A stretch of 35,536 bases of DNA from an uncultured Gammaproteobacteria bacterium (lineage in GTDB: Bacteria; Patescibacteriota; Patescibacteriia; Magasanikbacterales; UBA922), in contig CAZCAB010000001.1 of assembly GCA_964496615.1 (NCBI GenBank), forward strand, positions 1-35,536, read 5' to 3'. Every line of letters starts with the position of its first letter. The first letter of the stretch is position 1. A model generated the notes under the pieces. The model did not search any database, was not told the DNA's origin, and saw only the letters and a list, made by a program, of their open reading frames with translations. Positions 1 to 28,535 of the stretch are shown piece by piece. Both the position numbers and the translations under genes were made by a program.

Positions 1-1218
1 CTGCACATTTGAAAAAATGCGTAAATATGCAAGCACGTCCTTTATATGCGCGCGCTCAAAAAAACGAACGCCCCCGCGATAGTCATACGGGATATCTCGC
101 TTTGCCAGTTCCATTTCTAGTGCTTGCGAATGAAACGCCGCCCGAAAAAGAACAGACATGCCTGAAAGTGATACACCCTCTTCTCGTAGTTCAAGAATAC
201 GCTGAGCAACAAACTCAGCCTCCTCCACTGCATCAGCGAATGCCTGGACTTCTGGCTTTCCGAGTGAGCTCACAATACTCTTGAGCTCCTTCTCGTATTG
301 AGATAAATTGCGCGTAATAACATCGTTTGCGAGCGCTAGAATTTCAGGCGTGGATCGATAGTTCGTTTCAAGTCTGTGTACGCGCGCGCTTTCATATTTA
401 TCTTCAAAACCTAAGATATTTTGAATCTCTGCAGCGCGAAATGAGTAAATGCTTTGTGCATCGTCTCCCACAACCAAAACATTCTTATGGATACTCCCGA
501 ACTGATCAACAATCGCAGCCTGAATTTTATTCGTGTCTTGATACTCATCAACGAGCACGTAGCGAAACTGCGACGCAAATTTTTCCCGAACACGAGGAGA
601 TTTAAGCAAAAGCAGGTACAAATTTGTCAGTAAATCATCAAAATCCATTGCATTTGCATCAAGCTTTCGCTTCCGATACTCATCGGCAATTCGCGCGAGT
701 GTCTCTTCATGTTCAAGCCACGATGGATGCTGCACATCAAGAACATCAGCTATTGTACTCATTGCATTTCTTGCATAGCTGATAATCGAAGAAATGACCC
801 GAGGCGATGGGAATCTTTTTTGCGTGCGATCGATCCCTTCCCCTTTCACACAGAGTTTCAAAAGATCTCGCGAATCTTCTGAATCCAAAATAGTGAAGTT
901 ATTTTGATATCCGAGCAAACCTGCGTATTGCTTCAGTATCTTATACGCAACATGATGAAACGTGCCTGCCCATGGCAACTTAACAGTACCTTCTGTCAAC
1001 AATTCAACACGCGAAAGCATCTCTCTGGATGCTTTATTCGTAAACGTTACCAATAAAATACTCCCCGGATCGACTCCTTGCTCCAGCAAATATGCAACAC
1101 GATATGTGATCGCTCTTGTCTTTCCACTCCCCGCTCCAGCCAAAACTAAACACGGTCCATCTCCATTTTGCACCACGATACGCTGCTCTTGATTTAATTC
1201 CTTTTCAAAGTTAATCAT
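1..1218 (-). CDS. uvrD: UvrD/PcrA-family ATP-dependent DNA helicase, N-terminal 406 aa; the 3' end runs off the window, so it has no stop and is absent from the ORF track
   Basis: Own translation from ATG at 1218..1216: MINFEKELNQEQRIVVQNGDGPCLVLAGAGSGKTRAITYRVAYLLE... Helicase motifs I (GAGSGKT), II (VDEYQDTN), III (VVGDDAQSIYSFRAAE) and IV (ETNYRST) are present. The frame is open to position 1. Confidence 0.9.
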   Translation of the reverse strand, partial: MINFEKELNQEQRIVVQNGDGPCLVLAGAGSGKTRAITYRVAYLLEQGVDPGSILLVTFTNKASREMLSRVELLTEGTVKLPWAGTFHHVAYKILKQYAGLLGYQNNFTILDSEDSRDLLKLCVKGEGIDRTQKRFPSPRVISSIISYARNAMSTIADVLDVQHPSWLEHEETLARIADEYRKRKLDANAMDFDDLLTNLYLLLLKSPRVREKFASQFRYVLVDEYQDTNKIQAAIVDQFGSIHKNVLVVGDDAQSIYSFRAAEIQNILGFEDKYESARVHRLETNYRSTPEILALANDVITRNLSQYEKELKSIVSSLGKPEVQAFADAVEEAEFVAQRILELREEGVSLSGMSVLFRAAFHSQALEMELAKRDIPYDYRGGVRFFERAHIKDVLAYLRIFSNVQ

Positions 1219-1224
1219 GGATGA

Positions 1225-1959
1225 TCATTGTACCATGAGTACCACTCGCCTGCCATGCTGCACATCACCACCGTTCCAATCATGGATTGTATTCATTAAA
1301 TCATCATATGTATATTCGAAATCAGCACCATGTTTTGTCCCTGGATCATTTGTTATAAAATGCTCAGGTGTATACCCCTTAATAATTAAAGCATGATACA
1401 CTGGGCCGTCGCCGCTAAAATATGGATTTGGTAAATCTTTTCCATATGCTACAACAAGTACAGGATGCCCGTGTGCAACAGACCGTTTAATTTCCTCGAC
1501 AGTTGGATTCTCAACAATGTGAAATGTTTGCCCCTTTACGTGCTCGTTGGCAAATTCTCGAACTTGTGTCATGGGAATACTATACTCCCACTCTTTCTCG
1601 TCTTGCCAAGAAACCATTTTCAGTATTTCATCACGTGAAAAAAAGGGGCTCAAGCTATATGAAGAATAGTAGGCATCAAGCATAAGGACAGCGGCTTCCT
1701 CGCATGCATCTTGCCATGGCTGTTCCCAATTTCCTTCAGGCGCTTGCGACGTAAACGGTACAGCCAAATCTTTATGTTCAGGCATGTCATCTAAAACTAC
1801 TTTTTCTTTCGCGCGTTCTTCTCTTGCAAGAATTTCAGTGTCCACTCTCACGACAATTGTGACATCTGACAAGGATGTAATTTCTCTCACCACCCAAAAA
1901 ATGCCTAAGCCGAAAAAAATGGACAGGCAAAGACAGATTCTGTTAAATCTAGAAAACAT
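1225..1959 (-). CDS. Membrane-anchored C39-like (papain-fold) cysteine peptidase
   Basis: ORF 1225..2025. Start placed at ATG 1959 (MFSRFNRICLCLSIFFGLGIFW, a TM anchor), just downstream of a terminator. Putative Cys motif WQDACEEAAVLML, His in VYHALIIKGY, and NDPG. Confidence 0.6.
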   Translation of the reverse strand: MFSRFNRICLCLSIFFGLGIFWVVREITSLSDVTIVVRVDTEILAREERAKEKVVLDDMPEHKDLAVPFTSQAPEGNWEQPWQDACEEAAVLMLDAYYSSYSLSPFFSRDEILKMVSWQDEKEWEYSIPMTQVREFANEHVKGQTFHIVENPTVEEIKRSVAHGHPVLVVAYGKDLPNPYFSGDGPVYHALIIKGYTPEHFITNDPGTKHGADFEYTYDDLMNTIHDWNGGDVQHGRRVVLMVQ

Positions 1960-1961
1960 AC

Positions 1962-1995
1962 TAAAAAGAGCGAGGGTCCCGAATCCGGCACCCTC
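1962..1995 (-). terminator. Intrinsic terminator closing the minus-strand unit of GC island 1
   Basis: On the minus strand GAGGGT(g)CCG-gatt-CGG(g)ACCCTC is followed by GCTCTTTTTAG. It lies between the stop of the 171-aa ORF (2016) and ATG 1959. Confidence 0.5.
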
Positions 1996-2015
1996 ATTCC
2001 CCTTGGCGACCCCTC

Positions 2016-2513
2016 TTAGCCGCATGTGATTCCATGAAAATCGCGATAGCGCAGGTTCTCCACCAGATCTTGAAGGGTACCGTGCAAGCGAAGCACTTGC
2101 CGACCACCCGCCTTTCTGGTGCGGTTTAGCACAATCACGACAACGAACACCGAGCCGCGTTGACTCTTGACGCGAACATCAGTACGGCCTCCATTGACGC
2201 CGCGCCGTGCAAGCGCCTCCTCAATCGCATCCTCTACTCGGCGAGCAGAACTCACCTTTGGTAGGGATACGCGATCTGATGCTTCTGACTCCTTCCTCCA
2301 GGTGCCAGCAAGAATCTGCGCACGACTCGTTTCGCGAGCGGGATGTGCTGACTTGCGTGCGTCCAGCTCTTCCCTGCCCGCTTGGGTCAATTCTCCTTCC
2401 GGTGTCAGCCACCCCTTCTTCACAGCATGGGCGACTTCTTGGTTGTACGAAGAAAAGGCTCCAAAGGGAGTCCTCAGGGCCTCATCCCATACAGGTGTGC
2501 CGTTGTTACTCAA
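2016..2513 (-). CDS. Orphan hypothetical protein (165 aa from TTG 2513; the track ORF extends to 2531), GC-rich
   Basis: SD GAGGAGG (2523-2529) lies 9 nt before TTG 2513. G at codon position 1 is 67/165 by hand count, which is coding-like. No family recognised; KKGWLTPEGELTQAGREEL is vaguely wHTH-like. Confidence 0.5.
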   Translation of the reverse strand: MSNNGTPVWDEALRTPFGAFSSYNQEVAHAVKKGWLTPEGELTQAGREELDARKSAHPARETSRAQILAGTWRKESEASDRVSLPKVSSARRVEDAIEEALARRGVNGGRTDVRVKSQRGSVFVVVIVLNRTRKAGGRQVLRLHGTLQDLVENLRYRDFHGITCG

Positions 2514-2581
2514 TCTGCAGTTCCTCCTCAATTTCTGGCATATAGGACGGCGTACCTATAGCCGACGTATCCACTCTATTC

Positions 2582-2609
2582 AGAGTACCACACATTTTTT
2601 TATGGTCAA
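2582..2609 (-). promoter_or_regulatory. Putative sigma70 promoter for the 171-aa ORF
   Basis: TTGACC-N16-TGgTACTCT (extended -10) on the minus strand, about 60 nt upstream of the SD. Confidence 0.45.
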
Positions 2610-2639
2610 AACCCGATATTGATATATGCACAGAAACGG

Positions 2640-2668
2640 TTGACGACTTGAAAAACCCATGATATTAT
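2640..2668 (+). promoter_or_regulatory. Near-consensus sigma70 promoter of the GC-rich plus-strand unit
   Basis: TTGACG (2640-2645), 17-nt spacer, TATTAT (2663-2668). Confidence 0.6.
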
Positions 2669-2675
2669 CTAGCCT

Positions 2676-3150
2676 AATGTCGTCGGATTGGCCGGTGACA
2701 CCTGCAAAGGAGAGGGGGCTTGAGCGTCTTCGCTCGGCTCCTCGCCCTCCTATGTGCACTCATGGCGCGTCCAGCGCCAGCGCAGGAGGAGACTCCTACG
2801 ACGAGAGCACCGGGGCAGGTGAGGAGACCACGGCCCCGAGGTCGCAACCACGCATGTGCCACGTTCCCTCGCTGGATCTGGTACAGAAGGTTGCTCCTTC
2901 GGGTCTGTACCAACGGCTAGGAGCCCATGCTCTTGGCCGCATCAGACATCACAAGGAGATAAAACAAACCCTCGTGGAAGAGGATGGTTCGCGACGTAGT
3001 AAGCAGCGCATCAGACGCACAGACTTATTGGACAGTCGCCACACCACAGAACAACGCACAGGGATGGGGGGACAGGAGGACAACAGACCGCCTTCCACTC
3101 ATTGACCTGTTCAATCTGGACAGATCAATGAGGAGGCGGTTTTGTTTTTT
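2676..3150 (+). ncRNA. Candidate structured ncRNA of unknown class (about 470 nt, GC-rich); a leaderless 142-aa ORF (2677..3105) is the alternative reading
   Basis: Bounded by the promoter at 2640-2668 and the terminator at 3088-3150. Dense strong hairpins include GGUACAGA...CC(UUCG)GG...UCUGUACC (2880-2911), the 10-bp GGCUAGGAGC-CCAU-GCUCUUGGCC (2915-2938) and a GGAG-GAGA-CUCC GNRA loop. The open frames show no codon-position bias by hand count. No RNase P, tmRNA, SRP or tRNA motifs found. Confidence 0.4.
3088..3150 (+). terminator. Rho-independent terminator of the GC-rich plus-strand unit
   Basis: Long imperfect hairpin with CCGCCT/AGGCGG and CTCATTGA/TCAATGAG arms (3088-3139), followed by TTTTGTTTTTT (3140-3150). 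Confidence 0.7.
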
Positions 3151-3170
3151 CTTGATAAGAAGGATATAGT
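3142..3170 (+). promoter_or_regulatory. Putative rlmH promoter, with leaderless geometry
   Basis: TTGTTT-N17-TATAGT; ATG 3179 lies 8 nt after the -10 and there is no SD. Confidence 0.4.
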
Positions 3171-3178
3171 ACAAACAT

Positions 3179-3649
3179 ATGCTCAGTTTCACCATCATAT
3201 CAGTCGGCAAACTCAAAGAATCATATTGGAGGGAAGCACAAAAAGAATACGCAAAAAGGCTTTCATCTTTTTGTCATATGAACATTGTCGAACTCAAAGA
3301 GGAAAAAAATGATGGAAAAAGTAATCGAGAATCAGTTCAAAAGAAAGAAGCGCAAAAAATACTCAAAGTGATTCCAAAAAATGACTATGTGATCACGCTT
3401 GATCCAGAAGGTCAATCCTACACGTCCCAAAAACTCAGTTCATATATTGAACTACTCACGCACGAAGTGAGCTCAATTTCGTTCATTATTGGAGGCCCAC
3501 TTGGTTTACATAAAAAAATACTGAGTCAATCAAAAAAGAGCATATCGCTCTCTTCTTTTACTTTTACGCATCAAATGGCGCGCATTATCCTTCTTGAACA
3601 ACTGTACAGAGCCTTCATGATTTCAAACAACAGACCGTACCACCACTAA
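3179..3649 (+). CDS. rlmH: 23S rRNA (pseudouridine1915-N3)-methyltransferase RlmH (SPOUT)
   Basis: 156 aa. Contains FIIGGPLGL, FTFTHQMARIILLEQLYRAF and a C-terminal RPYHH, typical of the YbeA/RlmH family. Confidence 0.9.
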   Translation: MLSFTIISVGKLKESYWREAQKEYAKRLSSFCHMNIVELKEEKNDGKSNRESVQKKEAQKILKVIPKNDYVITLDPEGQSYTSQKLSSYIELLTHEVSSISFIIGGPLGLHKKILSQSKKSISLSSFTFTHQMARIILLEQLYRAFMISNNRPYHH

Positions 3650-4596
3650 GAATCTACGACGGCACTAAACGTATTTGTTCCCAAACATTGACCACCAAGG
3701 GCAACCTCAAAATTTTGAGGAATAGCGATCTTCCAGTATGAATCCTTTGTAGAAGCACTGCCGTCAGTCGTTTTTGCAAGATTAGTCTGCACCAGCTGAG
3801 TTGTGGTCGTAAAGTATGTCATATCTGCATAGGCTTGAGCAGCGGATAGTGAAAACTTTTGCTGCGCCGCCCCTATTGTGCCTGCAGAGCACGTCATGGC
3901 AGTGCCTGAAAAATAACTATCAATACTCACATTTCCTGTATTGGTTATTGTTACAGTCGTATCTGACGTAGATGTAGCGCCAATCGCAAGCTCTCCGTAG
4001 CTAAAAAAACCAGGAACACTGAGGGCAGCAAGAGAATTTATTTCTGAACTCATATTACTACTTGTACTCGTTGCGAAATCGTTATCGGAAACAGTCACCC
4101 ATGCGACCCATGTGTCTGATGGATATCCATCAGAGTCAGTTGAGTCTGCATAATATTGAAGCGTAAAATCACACTCATAACTAACTGTTCCTTCATTACC
4201 GATAACACACCCTGTAATTGTGCAATCCCCGCCAGAATAGGTGACGCGATAACAATTATTGTTATCTGCAGAACAATTTTGTGCATTAGAAACACTACTA
4301 CGGTAATATACACTCTTGAGCGAATTATTATTTAAATTCGAACATCCGTCTCCGTCAGAAATATCCCCCCTCACATAAACTGCTTTTGTCGAATTTTCAT
4401 TCAAATGGATGTTCCCTGCAACTGAGGGTCCATCTGGTGTTGAAGTCGTGACGATAACTGAATCAACAGTAGGAGAAAAAGCACTTTTTGCCGGCTCTAT
4501 GAAAGAGTGAGATCCCAAAATTATAAGACCAATTATGTACGCAGCTATAAACGTCGACCAAACAACCAATTCTTTCTTGTTTCCTTGTTTAATCAT
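3646..4596 (-). CDS. Hypothetical Ser/Thr-rich, Cys-containing cell-surface protein with an N-terminal TM anchor
   Basis: 316-aa ORF with hydrophobic N-terminus VVWSTFIAAYIIGLIILG. ATGA overlap with the upstream ORF (4593-4596). Ends in TAG, overlapping the rlmH stop convergently. Confidence 0.6.
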   Translation of the reverse strand: MIKQGNKKELVVWSTFIAAYIIGLIILGSHSFIEPAKSAFSPTVDSVIVTTSTPDGPSVAGNIHLNENSTKAVYVRGDISDGDGCSNLNNNSLKSVYYRSSVSNAQNCSADNNNCYRVTYSGGDCTITGCVIGNEGTVSYECDFTLQYYADSTDSDGYPSDTWVAWVTVSDNDFATSTSSNMSSEINSLAALSVPGFFSYGELAIGATSTSDTTVTITNTGNVSIDSYFSGTAMTCSAGTIGAAQQKFSLSAAQAYADMTYFTTTTQLVQTNLAKTTDGSASTKDSYWKIAIPQNFEVALGGQCLGTNTFSAVVDS

Positions 4597-13049: not shown

Positions 13050-13981
13050 ACAATTTGATGGGCACGACAGACCATTTGCCAGAGCTTTCGATAATGGGCA
13101 CGACGATCGTTCTCATGAAATTTAAGCATGGTATCAGAAATAACGACTCTGGTATCAGGCTCATGCTGGATACTCCCGGTATTTTGTGCCATCCTATGCA
13201 TTTGATACGTCTTTGCCTTCTTGTCAAACAGATCGAACAAAACGGCCGGCAGTCGCTCCACCCACTTCTGGACTAAACTCTGAGAAGTCTGCCAATCGTG
13301 CGATGGATTTTTCTGTGTATCTGCATGAGGCAGAGCAAACTTAAGCCAGTGATTCGCAGCACGCACGCGTGCATACGTCTTATGTGAATCAAAAAGTGGA
13401 ATAAGATGCGTGAGCCAATACACTAAATAGATATCATCTCGTGAAAGCGCAATATCTGCTAAGTTTAACCGCTCATCACTAATATAGAAACTCAAACATA
13501 TTTTATCTCTCACATCATCTTTTGATCTTCGCATCTTAAAAAGCTCAAGCATACTAGTAACAAGCAAACGACCAATCCACATTCTCCCGTGCTTTAAGAC
13601 AATGAAAAAATCAATATCGCTCTGATCCTTAGGGACTCCAAATGAAACCGTATTACATAGATACACACCACGAACAAATGGAATGTATGATAATAGTCTG
13701 GCAGCTCGTTTTGCAATACGCATCTTTTTTTCAGCAATAAGAAGACGCTCCCTCCTCTCGTTGACAATAGAAGATCGTCCCGGTAGAAAAAAATGGCCCC
13801 ACAGAGATTCAACAACTCCTGAATCCTTCAATATATCCAAACCTTGAATGAATGAGGAAAAAGAAATTTTCTTTGCATCCCATAGCAGTCGGTACAGCTC
13901 TTCCTTGGTAAGCGCGTAATCAAAAACATCAAAAAAAGCGAGTGTCTGTAGAACCGATTTTCGAAAGGAAGCTCCATCCAT
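13046..13981 (-). CDS. Hypothetical protein, possibly nucleotidyltransferase-fold; start trimmed from the 495-aa track ORF
   Basis: ATG 13981 (MDGASFRKSVLQTLAFFDVFDY...) lies 8 nt after TACACT. Contains SFGVPKDQSDIDFFIV. ATGA overlap with the downstream gene. The upstream 184 codons of the track ORF read through the GC-rich island in another frame. Confidence 0.6.
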   Translation of the reverse strand: MDGASFRKSVLQTLAFFDVFDYALTKEELYRLLWDAKKISFSSFIQGLDILKDSGVVESLWGHFFLPGRSSIVNERRERLLIAEKKMRIAKRAARLLSYIPFVRGVYLCNTVSFGVPKDQSDIDFFIVLKHGRMWIGRLLVTSMLELFKMRRSKDDVRDKICLSFYISDERLNLADIALSRDDIYLVYWLTHLIPLFDSHKTYARVRAANHWLKFALPHADTQKNPSHDWQTSQSLVQKWVERLPAVLFDLFDKKAKTYQMHRMAQNTGSIQHEPDTRVVISDTMLKFHENDRRAHYRKLWQMVCRAHQIV

Positions 13982-14007
13982 ATATTCTGAGTGTACCTGA
14001 TTTTCGT

Positions 14008-14033
14008 ACAAAACAAAAATCGCCCAAGGCGAT
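14008..14033 (-). terminator. Intrinsic terminator
   Basis: ATCGCC-ttg-GGCGAT followed by TTTTTGTTTTG on the minus strand. Confidence 0.65.
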
Positions 14034-14042
14034 ATTTTTATG

Positions 14043-14081
14043 CCCCCGCCCACCTCGACCTTTCGGTGAGGTGGGCGGGGG
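14043..14081. other. Very strong GC hairpin at the 3' end of the 99-aa cassette
   Basis: CCCCCGCCCACCTC / GAGGTGGGCGGGGG, a 14-bp perfect stem, with an inner ACC-GAAA-GGT on the minus strand. There is no adjacent U-tract; the canonical terminator follows 10 nt later. Confidence 0.7.
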
Positions 14082-14133
14082 TCGTTGGTTCTGCTGCCCC
14101 CAATGATGTCGGATCTCAGCGCTGGGGCGGCTA

Positions 14134-14433
14134 CTACTCGCTGACCTGCAGGTAGCCGGCCCGCTCCTCGGCGTTGTAGAAGCCCTCGACGCGGAGACCG
14201 CCGACGGGCATGCCCTCGATCGCGTTCATGAGGTTCCCACGGATGCAGAACATCCCGCGAGAGCCGGACTCGTAGCTGAGTCCGGTAATCTGCACGACCA
14301 CCTGACCGGTCTCGTGCGAGGTCTCGAACGTCGCGGTCGCGCCACGGGGATCGAAAGCGCGTGCGAACGCGTCGAGGATGTCGGGCGTCGAGGGGTTCAG
14401 GGGGTTCTTGAGAATGTCGATCCTGACCTTCAT
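14134..14433 (-). CDS. Orphan 99-aa protein with high-GC codon usage (MKVRIDILKNPLNPSTPDILDAFARAFDPRG...YLQVSE)
   Basis: SD GGAGGA (14438-14443) lies 4 nt before ATG 14433. About 88 of 99 codons end in G or C and 38/99 start with G (hand counts). Double stop TAGTAG. No family recognised. Confidence 0.65.
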   Translation of the reverse strand: MKVRIDILKNPLNPSTPDILDAFARAFDPRGATATFETSHETGQVVVQITGLSYESGSRGMFCIRGNLMNAIEGMPVGGLRVEGFYNAEERAGYLQVSE

Positions 14434-14488
14434 GTGCTCCTCCATGCGGCTGAAAGTGATATGCTGGCACCGCAAGACCAGACAACAG

Positions 14489-14517
14489 ACTATACCACAT
14501 AAAAGGAAATTTGTCAA
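14489..14517 (-). promoter_or_regulatory. Consensus promoter of the 99-aa cassette
   Basis: TTGACA (14512-14517), 17-nt spacer, TATAGT (14489-14494), followed by a 5' leader of about 55 nt. Confidence 0.65.
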
Positions 14518-14519
14518 TA

Positions 14520-14548
14520 CTAAAATACCCCAAATGTGGGGTATTTTC
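14520..14548. terminator. Intrinsic terminator after the PRC-barrel gene
   Basis: ATACCCCA-(4 nt)-TGGGGTAT flanked by A and T runs. Confidence 0.7.
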
Positions 14549-16225: not shown

Positions 16226-17170
16226 TTACTCTGTTTGCAAAAAATCTTCAACGAGCTTTTTCGCCTGCTCGAATGTTGTTACCCAGGCGACCTTTTTGTC
16301 GCGTTTAAACCACGTGTTTTGACGCCGTGCATAGCGCCTGGTATCGCGCTTCAAAATCTCAATGCATTCATCCATTGATGCCTTCCCTTCAAAATACGGT
16401 CGGAATTGCCGATATCCAATACCGCTCATACTGGGCAGATCCCATGGATACTTCTGCTTAAGCAAATTTCTGATTTCCTCCACTAACCCCAGCTTAACCA
16501 TTTCTTCGACACGATCATTGATGCGTTCATTTAACTCATCTTTAGTGACGTCAATACCGATTTGCAGGGTACTAAAAAGCGGATCCCCTTTTTGTCTTTG
16601 TTCGGAAAAAGGAACGCCGCTCAATATACAAACCTCAAACGCCCGAATAATACGCAGCTTGTTATGAAAATCAATAACCTGGCCAGAATCAGGATCCGTT
16701 TGTTTTAACAGTTCAATAAGCTACTCGTTACTCTTTTCTTCAAAACTTCTGCGTAGCTTATTATTCGGAGGAATCCGAGGGATCTTTAAGTTATCAACGG
16801 TTGCTTGAACATACAGTCCTGTTCCACCAACCAAAAACGGAGTTTTTCCATTACGAACGATTAATTTAGCAAATTTGATACTCCTGTCACGAAACTCCGC
16901 AACACTAAATTTCTTACCCGGATCTAGAAAATCGATATTATAATGTGGGACCCCGCCTGACACGTACGTCTTTCGAAGCCCGGTTCGCTGCCACTCCCCT
17001 TGAACCTTGGCAGTTCCGATATTCATTCTTTTGTAGATCTGTCGAGAATCAGCAGAAATAATCTCACCATTAAACTTCCTCGCCAAATCCAAACTCCACT
17101 TCGTTTTACCGCATGTAGTAGGACCGACCAGCACGATCATTTTGGGTAATTTTTTTAAATGTGCACGCAT
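16226..17170 (-). pseudogene. miaA: tRNA dimethylallyltransferase MiaA interrupted by a single in-frame TAG (codon 150, 16721-16723)
   Basis: Track ORFs 16721..17272 (P-loop GPTTCGKT, ISADSRQIYKRMNIGTAK) and 16226..16624 (GIGYRQF, TRRYARRQNTWF) are in the same frame. The 97 nt between them translate without stops as LIELLKQTDPDSGQVIDFHNKLRIIRAFEVCI, which is conserved MiaA sequence. Confidence 0.85.
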
Positions 17171-17174
17171 ATAT

Positions 17175-18515
17175 TTATGTTTTTTTGCCCCAGAGTACCC
17201 ACTCATCAGCTCGCTCGACATGCACCTGCACAATCGAGCCGACCAGGGATACGTCACCTTGAAAATGTACACGCTTCATCTCGCGAGAATTCCCAGAGCA
17301 CCATCCATTTTCACATTTCTCAACGAGTACTTCAACATCCGTATTTTTGTATGCCTGATTCTTTTTAAGGACAATCTGCTCCATGAGATTTTGAAGGACC
17401 CACCATCTCCTTTTTTTCTCATCTTTGGGCACATCATCTTCAAAAAGTGTAAATCCAAGGGTTCCCGTACGTGGAGAATACTGCGCGTTATATGAAATGT
17501 CAAAGTCACACTCCTTATACAAACTCACGGTATCCTCAAACATCTCTTCTGTCTCTCCACTGTACCCTACGATGATATCAGTGCCAAGAGCTATATCAGG
17601 TTTTTTTGCTCGTACTTTTTGCACGATCTGAAGATACGCTTCTCTGCTGTGCCGACGATTCATTCTCTCAAGCATGGCATCATTACCACTTTGCACAGGA
17701 AGATGCAAAAAGTTTACCTGTTTAGGGAGCGTTAACGCATCAATCACTTCATCACTCATGTATATGGGATGCGGAGCAGTAAAATGAATTCTATTAAGCG
17801 AATCAATGGTATTTAACTCCCAGAGCAGCTTTGCAAAATCACTTTCCTCATATGGATTATTCCTTGAAAAAAATTCACGGTCTGGAGCAACGTATCTATT
17901 CACTATCTGCCCAAGCAGTGTTATCTCCAAACACCCGTTTTCGGCAAGCTCGCGCACTTCACGCACGATATCTTCTGCCGGACGATTGACTTCAAGTCCG
18001 CGAGAAAATGGAACAACACAATATGTACAAAAATGATTACACCCGGTCTGAATGGTCACATATGCCTGTGACACGTTGTGATATGTTGGCCGCAGATTAA
18101 GATAGTCTTGAACAATATCTTCCATGGGGCGAAGATCAGGATTAAGCTCTGATAGCCACTTCGGAAGATAAACCATGTCTTTTGTTGGAAAATACAGATC
18201 AACCCCCCTGAGCTTTGTTTTCATCCTTCCATCCTTATCGCGACCAGGCATACACCCCGTCACTCCCACGATTAAATGAGGCTTTTTTTCTTTTAACTGA
18301 GCAAAATTGACTGCCTTTCCATACACTCTATCCTCCGCTGCTTGCCGAACTGAACAGCTATTCATAAGTATCACATCAGCCTGTTCAGGCATATTCGTCG
18401 AATCCAGGCCCATATTCTTCAAAATCGACTCCATTCGCTCTGAATCACTCTTGTTCATTTGACATCCAAACGTAAGAATATGGTAGTTGTATGTTTTTAG
18501 AGCACCTGTTTGCAT
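17175..18515 (-). CDS. miaB: tRNA-i6A37 methylthiotransferase MiaB (radical SAM)
   Basis: FGCQMNKSDSE and CNHFCTYCVVP, plus a TRAM-like C-terminus. Start placed at ATG 18515 (MQTGALKTYNYH). Confidence 0.93.
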   Translation of the reverse strand: MQTGALKTYNYHILTFGCQMNKSDSERMESILKNMGLDSTNMPEQADVILMNSCSVRQAAEDRVYGKAVNFAQLKEKKPHLIVGVTGCMPGRDKDGRMKTKLRGVDLYFPTKDMVYLPKWLSELNPDLRPMEDIVQDYLNLRPTYHNVSQAYVTIQTGCNHFCTYCVVPFSRGLEVNRPAEDIVREVRELAENGCLEITLLGQIVNRYVAPDREFFSRNNPYEESDFAKLLWELNTIDSLNRIHFTAPHPIYMSDEVIDALTLPKQVNFLHLPVQSGNDAMLERMNRRHSREAYLQIVQKVRAKKPDIALGTDIIVGYSGETEEMFEDTVSLYKECDFDISYNAQYSPRTGTLGFTLFEDDVPKDEKKRRWWVLQNLMEQIVLKKNQAYKNTDVEVLVEKCENGWCSGNSREMKRVHFQGDVSLVGSIVQVHVERADEWVLWGKKT

Positions 18516-26665: not shown

Positions 26666-28535
26666 TTAGCTCTCAACTTCTTCTTTCTCTTTTTCCTCTT
26701 TCTTTTGCTCACCTTTCATCACTTGATCAAAGAGTTCTTGCTCAACCGTCTCATGCTCCATGAGTGCATCAACAAGTCGTTGCATTTCAGTCATGTGCTC
26801 ATCGATAACCTTTGTTGCCCTTTCCTTTGCTTCTTCAAGAAGCTCATTGATCTCGGCATCGATAATTTCGGCTGTCTTTTCAGAATAATTCCTCTTATTG
26901 TGAATCTCTTCAGCAAGGAAAATCATTTGCTCATTTTCACCATACAAGCGTGGGCCAAGTTTGTCACTCATAGCATACCGAGTCACCATTGCTGTTGCTG
27001 TCTCAGTTGCTTTTTTCAAATCGCTCGACGGACCTGTGGTAAGAAATTCATTACCGTACTTCTTCTTTTCAATCACATACCCACCAAGCATCATGGCAAG
27101 ATCATCTTTAAACTTCGCGAGTGTTCTATACCGTACGTCTTCTTTTGGCATTGAAAGCGTATATCCACCAGCCATACCACGACCAATGATCGATACCTTT
27201 CTCACAGGGTCACAATGTTCAAGGAAATGCCCGACAATTGCATGTCCTGCTTCGTGCCAAGCGGTCATCTCCCGCTCCTTGTCGCTCATCACGCGCGAAC
27301 GCTTCTCAGGACCGAGGAGCACTTTATCAATACTCTCAAGAATCTCTTCTTCAGTTACCTGCTTTTTCTCTTTACGTACCGTAAGAATCGCTGCCTCGTT
27401 CAAAAGATTCTCTAGATCAGCGCCTGAAAATCCTGGAGTTCGCTCAGCAAGTTTTCGAAGTGACACTCCCTTACCCATCGGCTTGTTCTTCGCATGCACC
27501 TTCAAAATCTCTTCTCTGTCATTGATATCTGGCATATCAATGACCACACGTCTATCAAACCGTCCTGGTCGAAGCAGTGCCCGATCAAGGACGTCTGGTC
27601 TATTTGTTGCTGCCATGACGATCACACCAATGTTTGGATCAAACCCATCCATTTCAACCAAAATCTGGTTAAGGGTCTGCTCTCTTTCATCGTGTGAACC
27701 ACCAAGACCTGCTCCTCGCTTTCGACCAACCGCATCAATCTCATCGATAAAGACAATGGCAGGAGCTGCCTTTTTTTGCTTTGTTGAACAAATCTCGTAC
27801 CCTGCTCGCACCGACACCAACAAACATCTCAACAAATTCAGATCCTGAGATATGAAAGAATGGCACACCTGCTTCACCTGCAACTGCTTTTGCTAGAAGT
27901 GTCTTACCTGTCCCGGGGGATCCCATCAAAAGTACCCCACGAGGAATCTTGGCTCCCATGTCAGTGAATTTCTTTGGATCTTTAAGAAAATCAACTATTT
28001 CCTCAAGCTCGTCCTTCGCCTCTTTAGCTCCCGCAACATTGGTAAAGGTAATCTTATTCTTATCATCCGGCTTTGCTTGTTTTGCACCGCTCTGTCCAAA
28101 GCCCATTGCACGGTTATTCATACCCTGCACTTGTCTGGTCATGAGCCACATCAGACCAAGAATAAGGAACAGTGGGAATAGATACGGAGCAACGGCAGCT
28201 ATCCACACTTGTGGTCCTGTCTCGTCTTTTACCTGTACATCAATTGCCTGAAGTTTTTCAGCATCAACCTTGTAATCAGTCATGAGTTCGCTGAACGACT
28301 GCCCAAGCTCTTTTTTGAGCTGCTGCGTATTTGCCTCTTCATCAAGAAGAGTAACGGTTACGGTATCATTGATAACCTCAATACTCTTTACTTTTCCTTC
28401 GTTGATTTCCTGTACCAGTGTATTTACGCCGATATCATCCGGTTTTTCAGCATTAAAATCTGAAAAACTCATAACACCCGCAATGAGAAAGAGTGTCACA
28501 ATGATGAGTCCAATATTTTTTGCTAAGTTTTTCAT
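26666..28535 (-). CDS. ftsH: ATP-dependent zinc metalloprotease FtsH, split into two track ORFs by a 1-nt frameshift in an A7 run (27771-27777)
   Basis: N-terminal ORF: TM segments and Walker A GSPGTGKT...[11 protein letters not shown]-terminal ORF: [15 protein letters not shown] (Walker B), the SRH region and [10 protein letters not shown]. The total span is 1870 nt, which is 3n+1. Deleting one A gives [18 protein letters not shown]. Confidence 0.9.

Follow-up and report, generated by a model that had tools for sequence, protein, structure and literature searches.

A probable structured RNA gene of about 470 nucleotides upstream of rlmH in an uncultured bacterium with an AT-rich genome

The stretch of DNA analyzed here, referred to throughout as the window, comprises 35,536 nucleotides (nt) of contig CAZCAB010000001.1 (assembly GCA_964496615.1) from an uncultured bacterium placed by GTDB in the Magasanikbacterales (Patescibacteriota). 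Positions 2676-3150 of its plus strand were assessed, with a probability of roughly 0.6, as a stand-alone structured non-coding RNA (ncRNA) gene representing a new and very rare family. A discrete, structured, non-coding unit of about 470 nt without a known family had been proposed in an earlier note made from the letters alone, and this proposal was supported by a homologue in a second species, which keeps the promoter, the terminator, and the helices. Comparison of the two species showed that the boundaries of the unit are conserved, that the constraint is on the nucleotide sequence and lacks codon periodicity, and that the helices survive substitutions and length variation. The RNA is outside every described family, and as a kind, the orphan large structured RNA, it has precedents. 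Its accumulation in the cell and its mode of action we infer.

The comparison set consisted of the window and three contigs of a second lineage, L001, L059, and L060, where L059 is set apart from the otherwise near-identical L001 by a 37-nt insertion and one substitution. The 171-amino-acid (aa) protein encoded next to the RNA has a single close relative (P0002, 55% identity) among 5.8 billion clustered proteins, and the 2.3-kb contig of P0002, L001, bears the RNA homologue on the other strand. Contigs L059, L060, and L061 were reached via the 90%-identity cluster members of neighboring genes. The gene order of L059 and L060 is that of the window: YceG, CARDB, a gene for a 313-aa protein, rlmH, the RNA, the gene for the 171-aa winged helix-turn-helix (wHTH)-like protein, a C39_2 peptidase, and UvrD. 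The amino acid identity of eight syntenic proteins between the window and the second species ranged from 98% (GroEL) down to 54% (the wHTH-like protein). Third codon positions of the syntenic genes were 0.37-0.53 identical (0.60 in GroEL), with values of 0.6-0.98 and 0.69-0.99 at the first and second positions, respectively. Over ungapped columns, the RNA of the window was 80% identical to that of L001 and 72% identical to that of L059, the latter value including a poorly alignable variable tip. The indels relative to L001 were 1, 6, 34, 2, 14, 2, and 2 nt long, and a 37-nt indel separates L001 from L059; most are not multiples of three.

The transcription unit is delimited by the following features:
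2640-2668, plus strand: promoter, with a -35 element TTGACG (2640-2645), a 17-nt spacer, and an extended -10 element TGaTATTAT (2660-2668; TATTAT at 2663-2668).
2676-3150, plus strand: predicted transcript of about 472 nt; the start (2676/2677) is placed from the position of the -10 element, and the end lies within the T-tract.
3086-3150, plus strand: intrinsic terminator, a hairpin of about 24 base pairs (bp) at 3086-3141, then TTTTGTTTTTT at 3140-3150.

The promoter, described as near-consensus in the earlier note, matched at 10 of 12 positions, carried the TG extension, and was the sole sigma-70-like site detected by a promoter scan in the region 1500-4000. In L001 and L059, the -35 element is TTGACA, the TG is present, and the -10 element is TACCAT with unchanged spacing; the spacer and the upstream sequence have diverged. 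The terminator, a long hairpin with a T-tract as had been read by eye, was found by folding and was missed by a simple scanner, the hairpin being long and bulged. It is kept in L059 with the tail TTTTGTTTT; one U-G pair of the stem is changed to G-C, and a C/A mismatch of the window is an A-U pair in L059. A conserved promoter and a conserved terminator therefore bracket the element, with the flanking sequence diverged in the second species. The guanine plus cytosine (GC) content per 100 nt was 0.56-0.68 across 2650-2950 versus about 0.43 in the whole window. The GC contrast previously pointed out is thus real; the island is larger than had been described, extending over about 1960-3150 and including a protein gene. 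The plus strand of the RNA is T-poor (18% T).

The open reading frames (ORFs) 2659/2677-3105 and 2720-2920 are present, and the lack of codon-position bias first counted by hand was borne out by the flat GC content over the three codon positions (0.64/0.56/0.59 and 0.61/0.63/0.67, respectively). Coding in any frame was not apparent between the species: the differences per codon position were flat in all blocks and frames (for example, 11/8/9, 8/8/9, and 6/5/8), and synonymous changes made up a small minority in the ungapped blocks. The ORF translations had no family match in Pfam, NCBIfam, or PHROGs. The long ORF from ATG 2677 counts 142 codons in the window and 137 in L001 but stops after 83 in L059 and L060, and its frame is not conserved. 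By dinucleotide shuffling, its length had P = 0.02 in the window and P = 0.01 in L001. Relative to the alignment, the long ORF of L001 crosses all three frames of the window, and BLASTP of the two long ORFs gave 13 identical residues among 26 aligned. Since the strand is T-poor, long open frames arise easily, and the long ORF was regarded as a by-product. Automatic gene calls lie over the RNA in the window (148 aa, 2659-3105, plus strand) and in L001 (143 aa, 10-441, minus strand), with none in L059 and L060. Both calls are singleton clusters among 15 billion proteins and are probably spurious annotations.

Against dinucleotide shuffles, the folding energy of the whole unit corresponded to z = -6.0 on the plus strand and -4.7 on the minus strand, in keeping with the hairpin-dense transcript that had been proposed. 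The body without the terminator had z = -3.2, the segment 2714-2912 had z = -3.8, and the homologues reached -4.1 (L001) and -6.25 (L059); another GC-rich island, a coding one, gave -1.0. The two-species RNAalifold consensus comprised 111 pairs in 15 helices, among which eight pairs were changed on both sides and 15 on one side and still paired, compared with one double change in each of the slid controls. The same architecture was obtained when L059 was added (three-sequence RNAalifold), and the window segment 2714-2912 folds into it alone. The many G-U pairs mark the plus strand as the functional one. A conserved alternative structure of the anti-terminator kind was not seen in the RNA element. 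The predicted structure is composed of the following elements:
2679-2699, plus strand: P1, the 5'-terminal hairpin GUCGUCGG-AUUGG-CCGGUGAC, beginning 2 nt after the predicted 5' end.
2707-2712, plus strand: the first AAGGAG, single-stranded and resembling a Shine-Dalgarno (SD) sequence, 7 nt before TTG 2720.
2714-2717, plus strand: 5' half of a predicted long-range helix, in which GGGG pairs with CCCU at 2969-2972 and closes the central multi-helix domain.
2722-2735, plus strand: P3, the hairpin GAGCG-UCUU-CGCUC, present in every fold.
2736-2829, plus strand: P4, a long irregular three-way-branched stem (2736-2760 with 2804-2829) with tip hairpins at 2764-2778 and 2783-2802.
2830-2908, plus strand: P8, a conserved stem formed by 2830-2848 and 2890-2908 and topped by a variable tip (2849-2889).
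2914-2939, plus strand: P9, the invariant 11-bp hairpin C-GGCUAGGAGC-YCAU-GCUCUUGGCC-G, two G-U pairs included.
2940-2968, plus strand: a purine-rich single-stranded linker, CAUCARACAWCACAAGGAG(AU)AAAACAAA, with the second AAGGAG at 2953-2958.
2975-3085, plus strand: the 3' domain, two to three weaker hairpins with the conserved block CACACCACAGAA.A.CGC.CAGGGAUG.GGGG (3043-3072).

All eight pairs of P1 are retained in all copies at about 87% identity, with two one-side changes (U-G to C-G and G-C to G-U). The first AAGGAG is invariant in the window, L001, and L059 and is unpaired in the consensus folds. The long-range helix (columns 46-51 with 312-317 of the three-sequence RNAalifold) has six pairs in L059 and L001 and four in the window, and it is weakly supported. 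In P3, a double change has turned the loop-closing G-C pair into A-U, and the loop reads UCUU or GUAU. A single A-to-T difference separates L060 from L059 in the P3 stem (GAGCA to GUGCA; about position 9915 of L060, minus strand, equivalent to window position 2723); it would turn an A-U pair into a U-U mismatch and may be a polymorphism or a sequencing error. The P4 stem with its lower extension has 19 pairs in the two-species consensus, two changed on both sides, six changed on one side, and none broken. The one-side changes are C-G to U-G, which are the majority, or U-A to U-G. One P4 tip is the hairpin GGCGC-GUCCA-GCGCC at 2764-2778; the other, at 2783-2802, carries a GNRA tetraloop in both species, GAGA in the window (GGAG-GAGA-CUCC) and GCAA in L059.

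The P8 stem contains 16 pairs, 14 of which are invariant and two changed on one side. The tip, unrelated in sequence from copy to copy, has 41 nt in the window, 44 in L059, and 7 in L001, and it thus behaves as an expansion segment (a variable stem-loop). The P9 stem is identical in all copies, with the loop CCAU in the window (GGCUAGGAGC-CCAU-GCUCUUGGCC, 2915-2938). P9 belongs to the 52-nt block of highest conservation (2903-2958), where just three differences occur; the block 2883-2958 is 87% identical. The linker that follows is nearly invariant across the species and mostly unpaired, save for a weak 3-bp helix in the two-sequence fold, and the sequence has no start codon at SD spacing after the second AAGGAG (2953-2958). 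The predicted helices of the 3' domain include two pairs with double changes, and the relatives lack a 14-nt segment of this domain (3008-3021). The hairpins listed in the earlier note are all in the sequence; one of them, GGUACAGA...UCUGUACC, was rejected as a structural element, as it occurs in the window only and the conserved alternative is the pairing of 2830-2848 with 2890-2908. Similarly, the direct repeat noted there as 9 nt long is real and extends to 10 nt (CGCATCAGAC, 2938-2947 and 3007-3016), and it was discarded as a functional feature since its second copy falls within the 14-nt segment that the relatives lack.

Membership in known families was evaluated with the 4227 covariance models of Rfam 15, including RNase P, transfer-messenger RNA (tmRNA), signal recognition particle (SRP), 6S, OLE, ROOL, GOLLD, raiA, and HEARO as well as group I/II introns and riboswitches, using the gathering threshold as the criterion. 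At gathering thresholds, the whole window gave 0 matches. At E <= 10, the window region 1900-3300 and L059 9440-10030 gave unrelated noise of 10-20 bits (microRNA, small nucleolar RNA, and long non-coding RNA models), and the only noise recurring in both species was a weak mir-276 match to the P9 hairpin. A weak ROSE_3 match was dismissed because it corresponds to the terminator hairpin of the neighboring minus-strand gene. ARAGORN detected neither tRNA nor tmRNA in the window, and the RNase P core GGAAAGUCC and a tmRNA tag ORF with a T-arm were not seen on reading the RNA sequence. The earlier failure to find RNase P, tmRNA, SRP, or tRNA cores by eye therefore held. The literature search on structured RNAs in Patescibacteria or the candidate phyla radiation found none.

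Searches for further members were made in several collections. In distant mode, blastn against phages and plasmids left the RNA unmatched; viral contigs scanned with five patterns from different conserved blocks gave 0 matches, and a covariance model of the RNA core identified no further copy in the window or in the loci of the relatives. Two pattern searches were set aside: GTACCAACGGCN{14,30}GCCGCATCA hit 42 stretches of genome contigs by chance, none of which nhmmer with the RNA alignment recovered, while the eight matches of CACAAGGAGN{0,4}AAAACAAACCC in metagenome contigs were all due to chance. The RNA family is very rare among currently sampled sequences, with two species found in the collections searched.

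Large orphan RNAs offer the closest comparison. Like OLE, ROOL, GOLLD, the raiA motif RNA, and HEARO/IscB omega-RNA, the window RNA is several hundred nucleotides long and has its own promoter and terminator, a multi-helix fold, conserved single-stranded joints, hairpin tips of variable length, a GC content above that of the host genome, a narrow range, and a function unreadable from the sequence. It differs in being unmatched by their covariance models even at E = 10, in the absence of their typical neighbors (oap, prophage, IscB/TnpB) from its locus, and in being far rarer. The window RNA is comparable in size to RNase P RNA and tmRNA and shares with these, SRP RNA, and 6S RNA a single-copy chromosomal gene, its own promoter and terminator, and GC-richness against an AT-rich genome; however, none of their Rfam models match. 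CsrB and RsmZ are GGA sponges with repeated exposed purine motifs. By functional analogy, the two invariant unpaired AAGGAG motifs, the many GGA triplets, and a stable transcript of its own might liken the window RNA to them, but it has only two conserved motifs, no repetitive array, and neither motif in a hairpin loop in the consensus folds, and no CsrA-like gene was seen among the genes of the 35-kb window.

A number of observations weigh against an ncRNA gene. The independent sequences come from two species (plus one strain variant), too few for statistical covariation, and the consensus was built from the same sequences, so that its 100% pairing is circular. When single-sequence minimum free energy folds were projected across the species, 49-57% of the changed pairs were kept paired versus about 25-51% (means of about 36-41%) in slid controls, a modest excess. 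Negative folding z-scores are nonspecific, as neighboring protein-coding sequence reached z = -3.4, and the other GC-rich islands of these genomes are protein-coding. The transcript would begin with AUG (2677), 8 nt after the -10 element, as in real leaderless genes here. The spacer of about 110 nt upstream of the wHTH-like genes of distant relatives contains no RNA of this kind, a point that counts against the ribonucleoprotein idea discussed below. The remaining points concern a small ORF within the element:
2720-2920, plus strand: small ORF outside the RNA model, with a TTG start, 66 aa, and a TAG stop inside P9.

Its AAGGAG (2707-2712), the 7-nt spacing, and TTG 2720 are identical in both species. 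The frame is kept between the window and L059 (69 aa there) with indels of 6 and 3 nt, and the BLOSUM score of 163, compared with 111 and 99 in the other frames, corresponds to z = 2.8 on column shuffling. These points give substance to the alternative that survives best, which is nevertheless regarded as unlikely: an mRNA or a dual-function RNA in which TTG 2720, served by AAGGAG, opens a product whose N-terminus (MSVFARLLALLCALMARPAPA) resembles a signal peptide and whose C-terminus is rich in arginine and ends in RRLLLRVCTNG; what remains of the transcript would be a structured 3' untranslated region. It is further favored by TTG starts, apparently common among the ORFs of this genome, by the 5'-terminal AUG of L059, which is in frame with the small ORF, and by the small proteins encoded in other GC-rich islands here. 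The amino acid identity between the window and L059 is 37/67, with 10 synonymous and 30 non-synonymous codon changes and differences of 20/20/27 by codon position. The third positions are not relaxed, with an identity per codon position of 0.70/0.70/0.60 versus 0.60/0.69/0.37 in the equally diverged wHTH-like gene, and the conservative replacements among Leu, Val, Ala, and Phe are a product of C-to-U transitions in the pyrimidine-rich strand of P4. The start codon stands directly before a GC hairpin followed by a 19-bp stem. The most conserved block contains the stop codon and runs on for 38 nt past it, and constraint extends over a further 170 nt, for which a peptide gives no explanation. In L001, a natural 37-nt deletion puts the later part of the ORF out of frame, and the product has no match in the three protein family collections. 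SgrS/SgrT, RNAIII/delta-haemolysin, and SR1/SR1P are dual-function small RNAs (sRNAs) that also code for a small peptide. The element resembles this type in its structured transcript of its own, an SD-preceded short ORF, and RNA conservation past the ORF, but it differs in a peptide that is almost without signs of purifying selection.

A remnant of GC-rich DNA acquired by horizontal transfer and now in decay, a pseudogene or mobile-element fragment without present function, was considered an improbable reading of the element. Several foreign-looking GC-rich islands occur (14134-14451 with a GC content at third codon positions (GC3) of 0.89, and those in L046 and L059), the RNA and the wHTH-like gene form one GC-rich block at about 1960-3150, and the split FtsH and MiaA genes indicate that gene decay or assembly errors occur in the window. 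Decay is at odds with 72-80% identity and a near-invariant 52-nt core in a setting where third codon positions are 37-53% identical, with promoter elements and a terminator selectively kept in diverged surroundings, with the helix-preserving substitutions, and with the searches of phage and plasmid collections and viral contigs, which gave no related sequence.

Only a slight chance was given to a cis regulator, either a leader or attenuator of rlmH or a divergent transcript controlling the operon of the wHTH-like protein and the C39 peptidase. The terminator ends 29 nt upstream of where rlmH starts, the order of the RNA followed by rlmH is conserved, and the promoters of the RNA and the wHTH-like gene stand back to back on direct reading of the sequence. 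However, rlmH, which starts at 3179, has its own conserved leaderless promoter (TTGTTT-17-TATAGT, 8 nt, ATG) overlapping the T-tract of the RNA, no conserved anti-terminator was seen, no riboswitch or leader family matched, the two divergent transcripts do not overlap, and 470 nt with a multi-helix core is far above the typical size of an attenuator. Finally, a leaderless disordered protein of about 142 aa from ATG 2677, the caveat raised in the earlier note, is scarcely credible: its geometry (the -10 element, 8 nt, and ATG, as in rlmH, MiaB, and ORF 16214) is real and conserved in L001 and L059, and the frame is open to the terminator in the window and L001, but it is largely refuted by the stop after 83 codons in L059 and L060, two near-copies of L001 in which no gene was called there, the G of the AUG already lies within the 8-bp P1 hairpin, and the frame lacks codon periodicity on a strand where long frames come easily.

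As a structured ncRNA, the element would be transcribed from the strong extended -10 promoter and stop at the long terminator just upstream of the separately promoted leaderless rlmH. The RNA is predicted to consist of P1, the long-range GGGG/CCCU helix enclosing P3, P4, P8, and P9, the purine-rich strand, the looser 3' domain, and the terminator. Its 5' hairpin, strong terminator, and compact core give it the look of a stable trans-acting RNA. The favored guess is that it serves as a binding platform whose likely interaction surfaces are P9 and the SD-like purine strand, and that these bind either a protein, for which the divergently encoded basic wHTH-like protein would be one candidate, or the anti-SD region of the small (30S) ribosomal subunit. 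Even if the element is an ncRNA, any such ribonucleoprotein role is tentative and rated possible at best. That it is the founding member of a new class of large RNAs (about 470 nt) in a small Patescibacteria-like clade with reduced genomes, its P9 hairpin and exposed SD-like strands engaging the translation machinery or a dedicated basic protein, possibly the wHTH-like one, is doubtful.

The candidate partner is encoded as follows:
2016-2531, minus strand: wHTH-like gene, divergent from the RNA and GC-rich, encoding a basic 171-aa protein (annotated as 135 aa).

Its terminator is a hairpin with a T-tract at about 1996-1960, so the GC-rich block of about 1960-3150 is made up of two divergent units, this minus-strand ORF and the plus-strand RNA candidate. 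The protein has an N-terminal wHTH-like motif matching Pfam PF24409 (winged helix-turn-helix) at E = 1e-5, below the curated cut-off, and a C-terminal domain predicted as alpha-beta-beta-beta-alpha; the AlphaFold2 models of the protein had a predicted local distance difference test of 61-65. Foldseek and sequence searches against PDB returned nothing significant, and double-stranded RNA-binding domains came no closer than E of about 0.5-0.7. The view of the protein as a demonstrable binder of double-stranded RNA was rejected, the resemblance being one of topology without a significant fold or sequence match. Four distant relatives were found in a full HMMER scan, and those with context (P0005 and P0006) are flanked by a divergent tRNA-guanine transglycosylase (TGT) gene on one side and a Peptidase_C39_2 gene on the other. 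The distant relatives adjoin the peptidase without the RNA, which ties the protein to the peptidase and not to the RNA and makes the ribonucleoprotein idea a guess. Co-occurrence of RNA and protein together with a recognizable RNA-binding fold was not found.

The pair of wHTH-like and Peptidase_C39_2 genes is located at 1225-2531 (minus strand) in the window, at 3473-5053 in L046, and at 2175-3742 in L047; in L046 and L047, it is preceded by the divergent TGT gene. On contig L050 (1159-2941), the TGT and wHTH-like genes are present, but the sequence breaks off with no peptidase gene reached. GC-rich versions of the wHTH-like gene occur in the window, L001, and L050, and an AT-rich one occurs in L046.

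Other GC-rich islands bear on the statement of the earlier note that a GC contrast is typical of structured RNA genes in AT-rich genomes, which proved not to be diagnostic. A second island in the window (14010-14520, minus strand, GC content of 0.61) contains a 105-aa ORF (14134-14451, GC3 of 0.89) without a Pfam, NCBIfam, or PHROGs match. A separate promoter (TTGACA-17-TATAGT) and two hairpin terminators belong to this island, which has the appearance of DNA recently acquired from a donor of high GC content. The L059 island (13500-14230, minus strand) is situated between UvrD and NDK and carries a promoter of its own and a Cys-rich ORF of 116 aa in which several CxxC motifs occur, and the L046 island (1560-1960, minus strand) has its own promoter and an ORF of about 70 aa with GC-rich third codon positions. 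These two islands had no Rfam match. GC-richness alone was accordingly abandoned as an indicator of RNA genes, the other islands being protein-coding.

In other respects, nothing sets the window apart from the usual chromosomal DNA of an AT-rich bacterium: its overall GC content is about 43%, and it has genes for GroEL, a class-I release factor, YceG, YidC, ThrRS, FtsH, S1, MiaA/MiaB, and a PilB-type ATPase. This gene content suggests a member of the Patescibacteria (candidate phyla radiation). The leaderless layout (a -10 hexamer, exactly 8 nt, and ATG) occurs in rlmH (3150-3181), ORF 16214, and MiaB (18515), and that of rlmH is kept in L059 (9467-9500). The FtsH gene is split (26666-28535, minus strand) into the overlapping ORFs 27741-28535 and 26666-27883, and the MiaA gene (IPPT domain; 16226-17272, minus strand) into 16721-17272 and 16226-16624, a split that loses profile positions 93-133. 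Such splits are either frameshifts or pseudogenes or else assembly errors, and indels of 1-2 nt in this contig should therefore be treated with caution.

The locus carries practical warnings: automatic annotation placed a hypothetical protein over the RNA element in two assemblies and nothing in a third, and GC-richness by itself cannot tell RNA genes from foreign protein genes here. The weight of the finding is limited by rarity (two species in the collections searched) and by the lack of a functional clue. To our knowledge, few bacterial RNAs longer than 400 nt lack an assigned function. Historically, large bacterial RNAs have proved to be ribozymes, ribonucleoprotein scaffolds, or large self-assembling particles. 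Should the element found a new class, it would count not as a conventional base-pairing sRNA but as a novel ribonucleoprotein or a regulator directed at the ribosome. Reduced-genome lineages keep little that is dispensable. A new large RNA would add a component to an uncultured lineage of this kind, whose biology is mostly deduced from protein genes.

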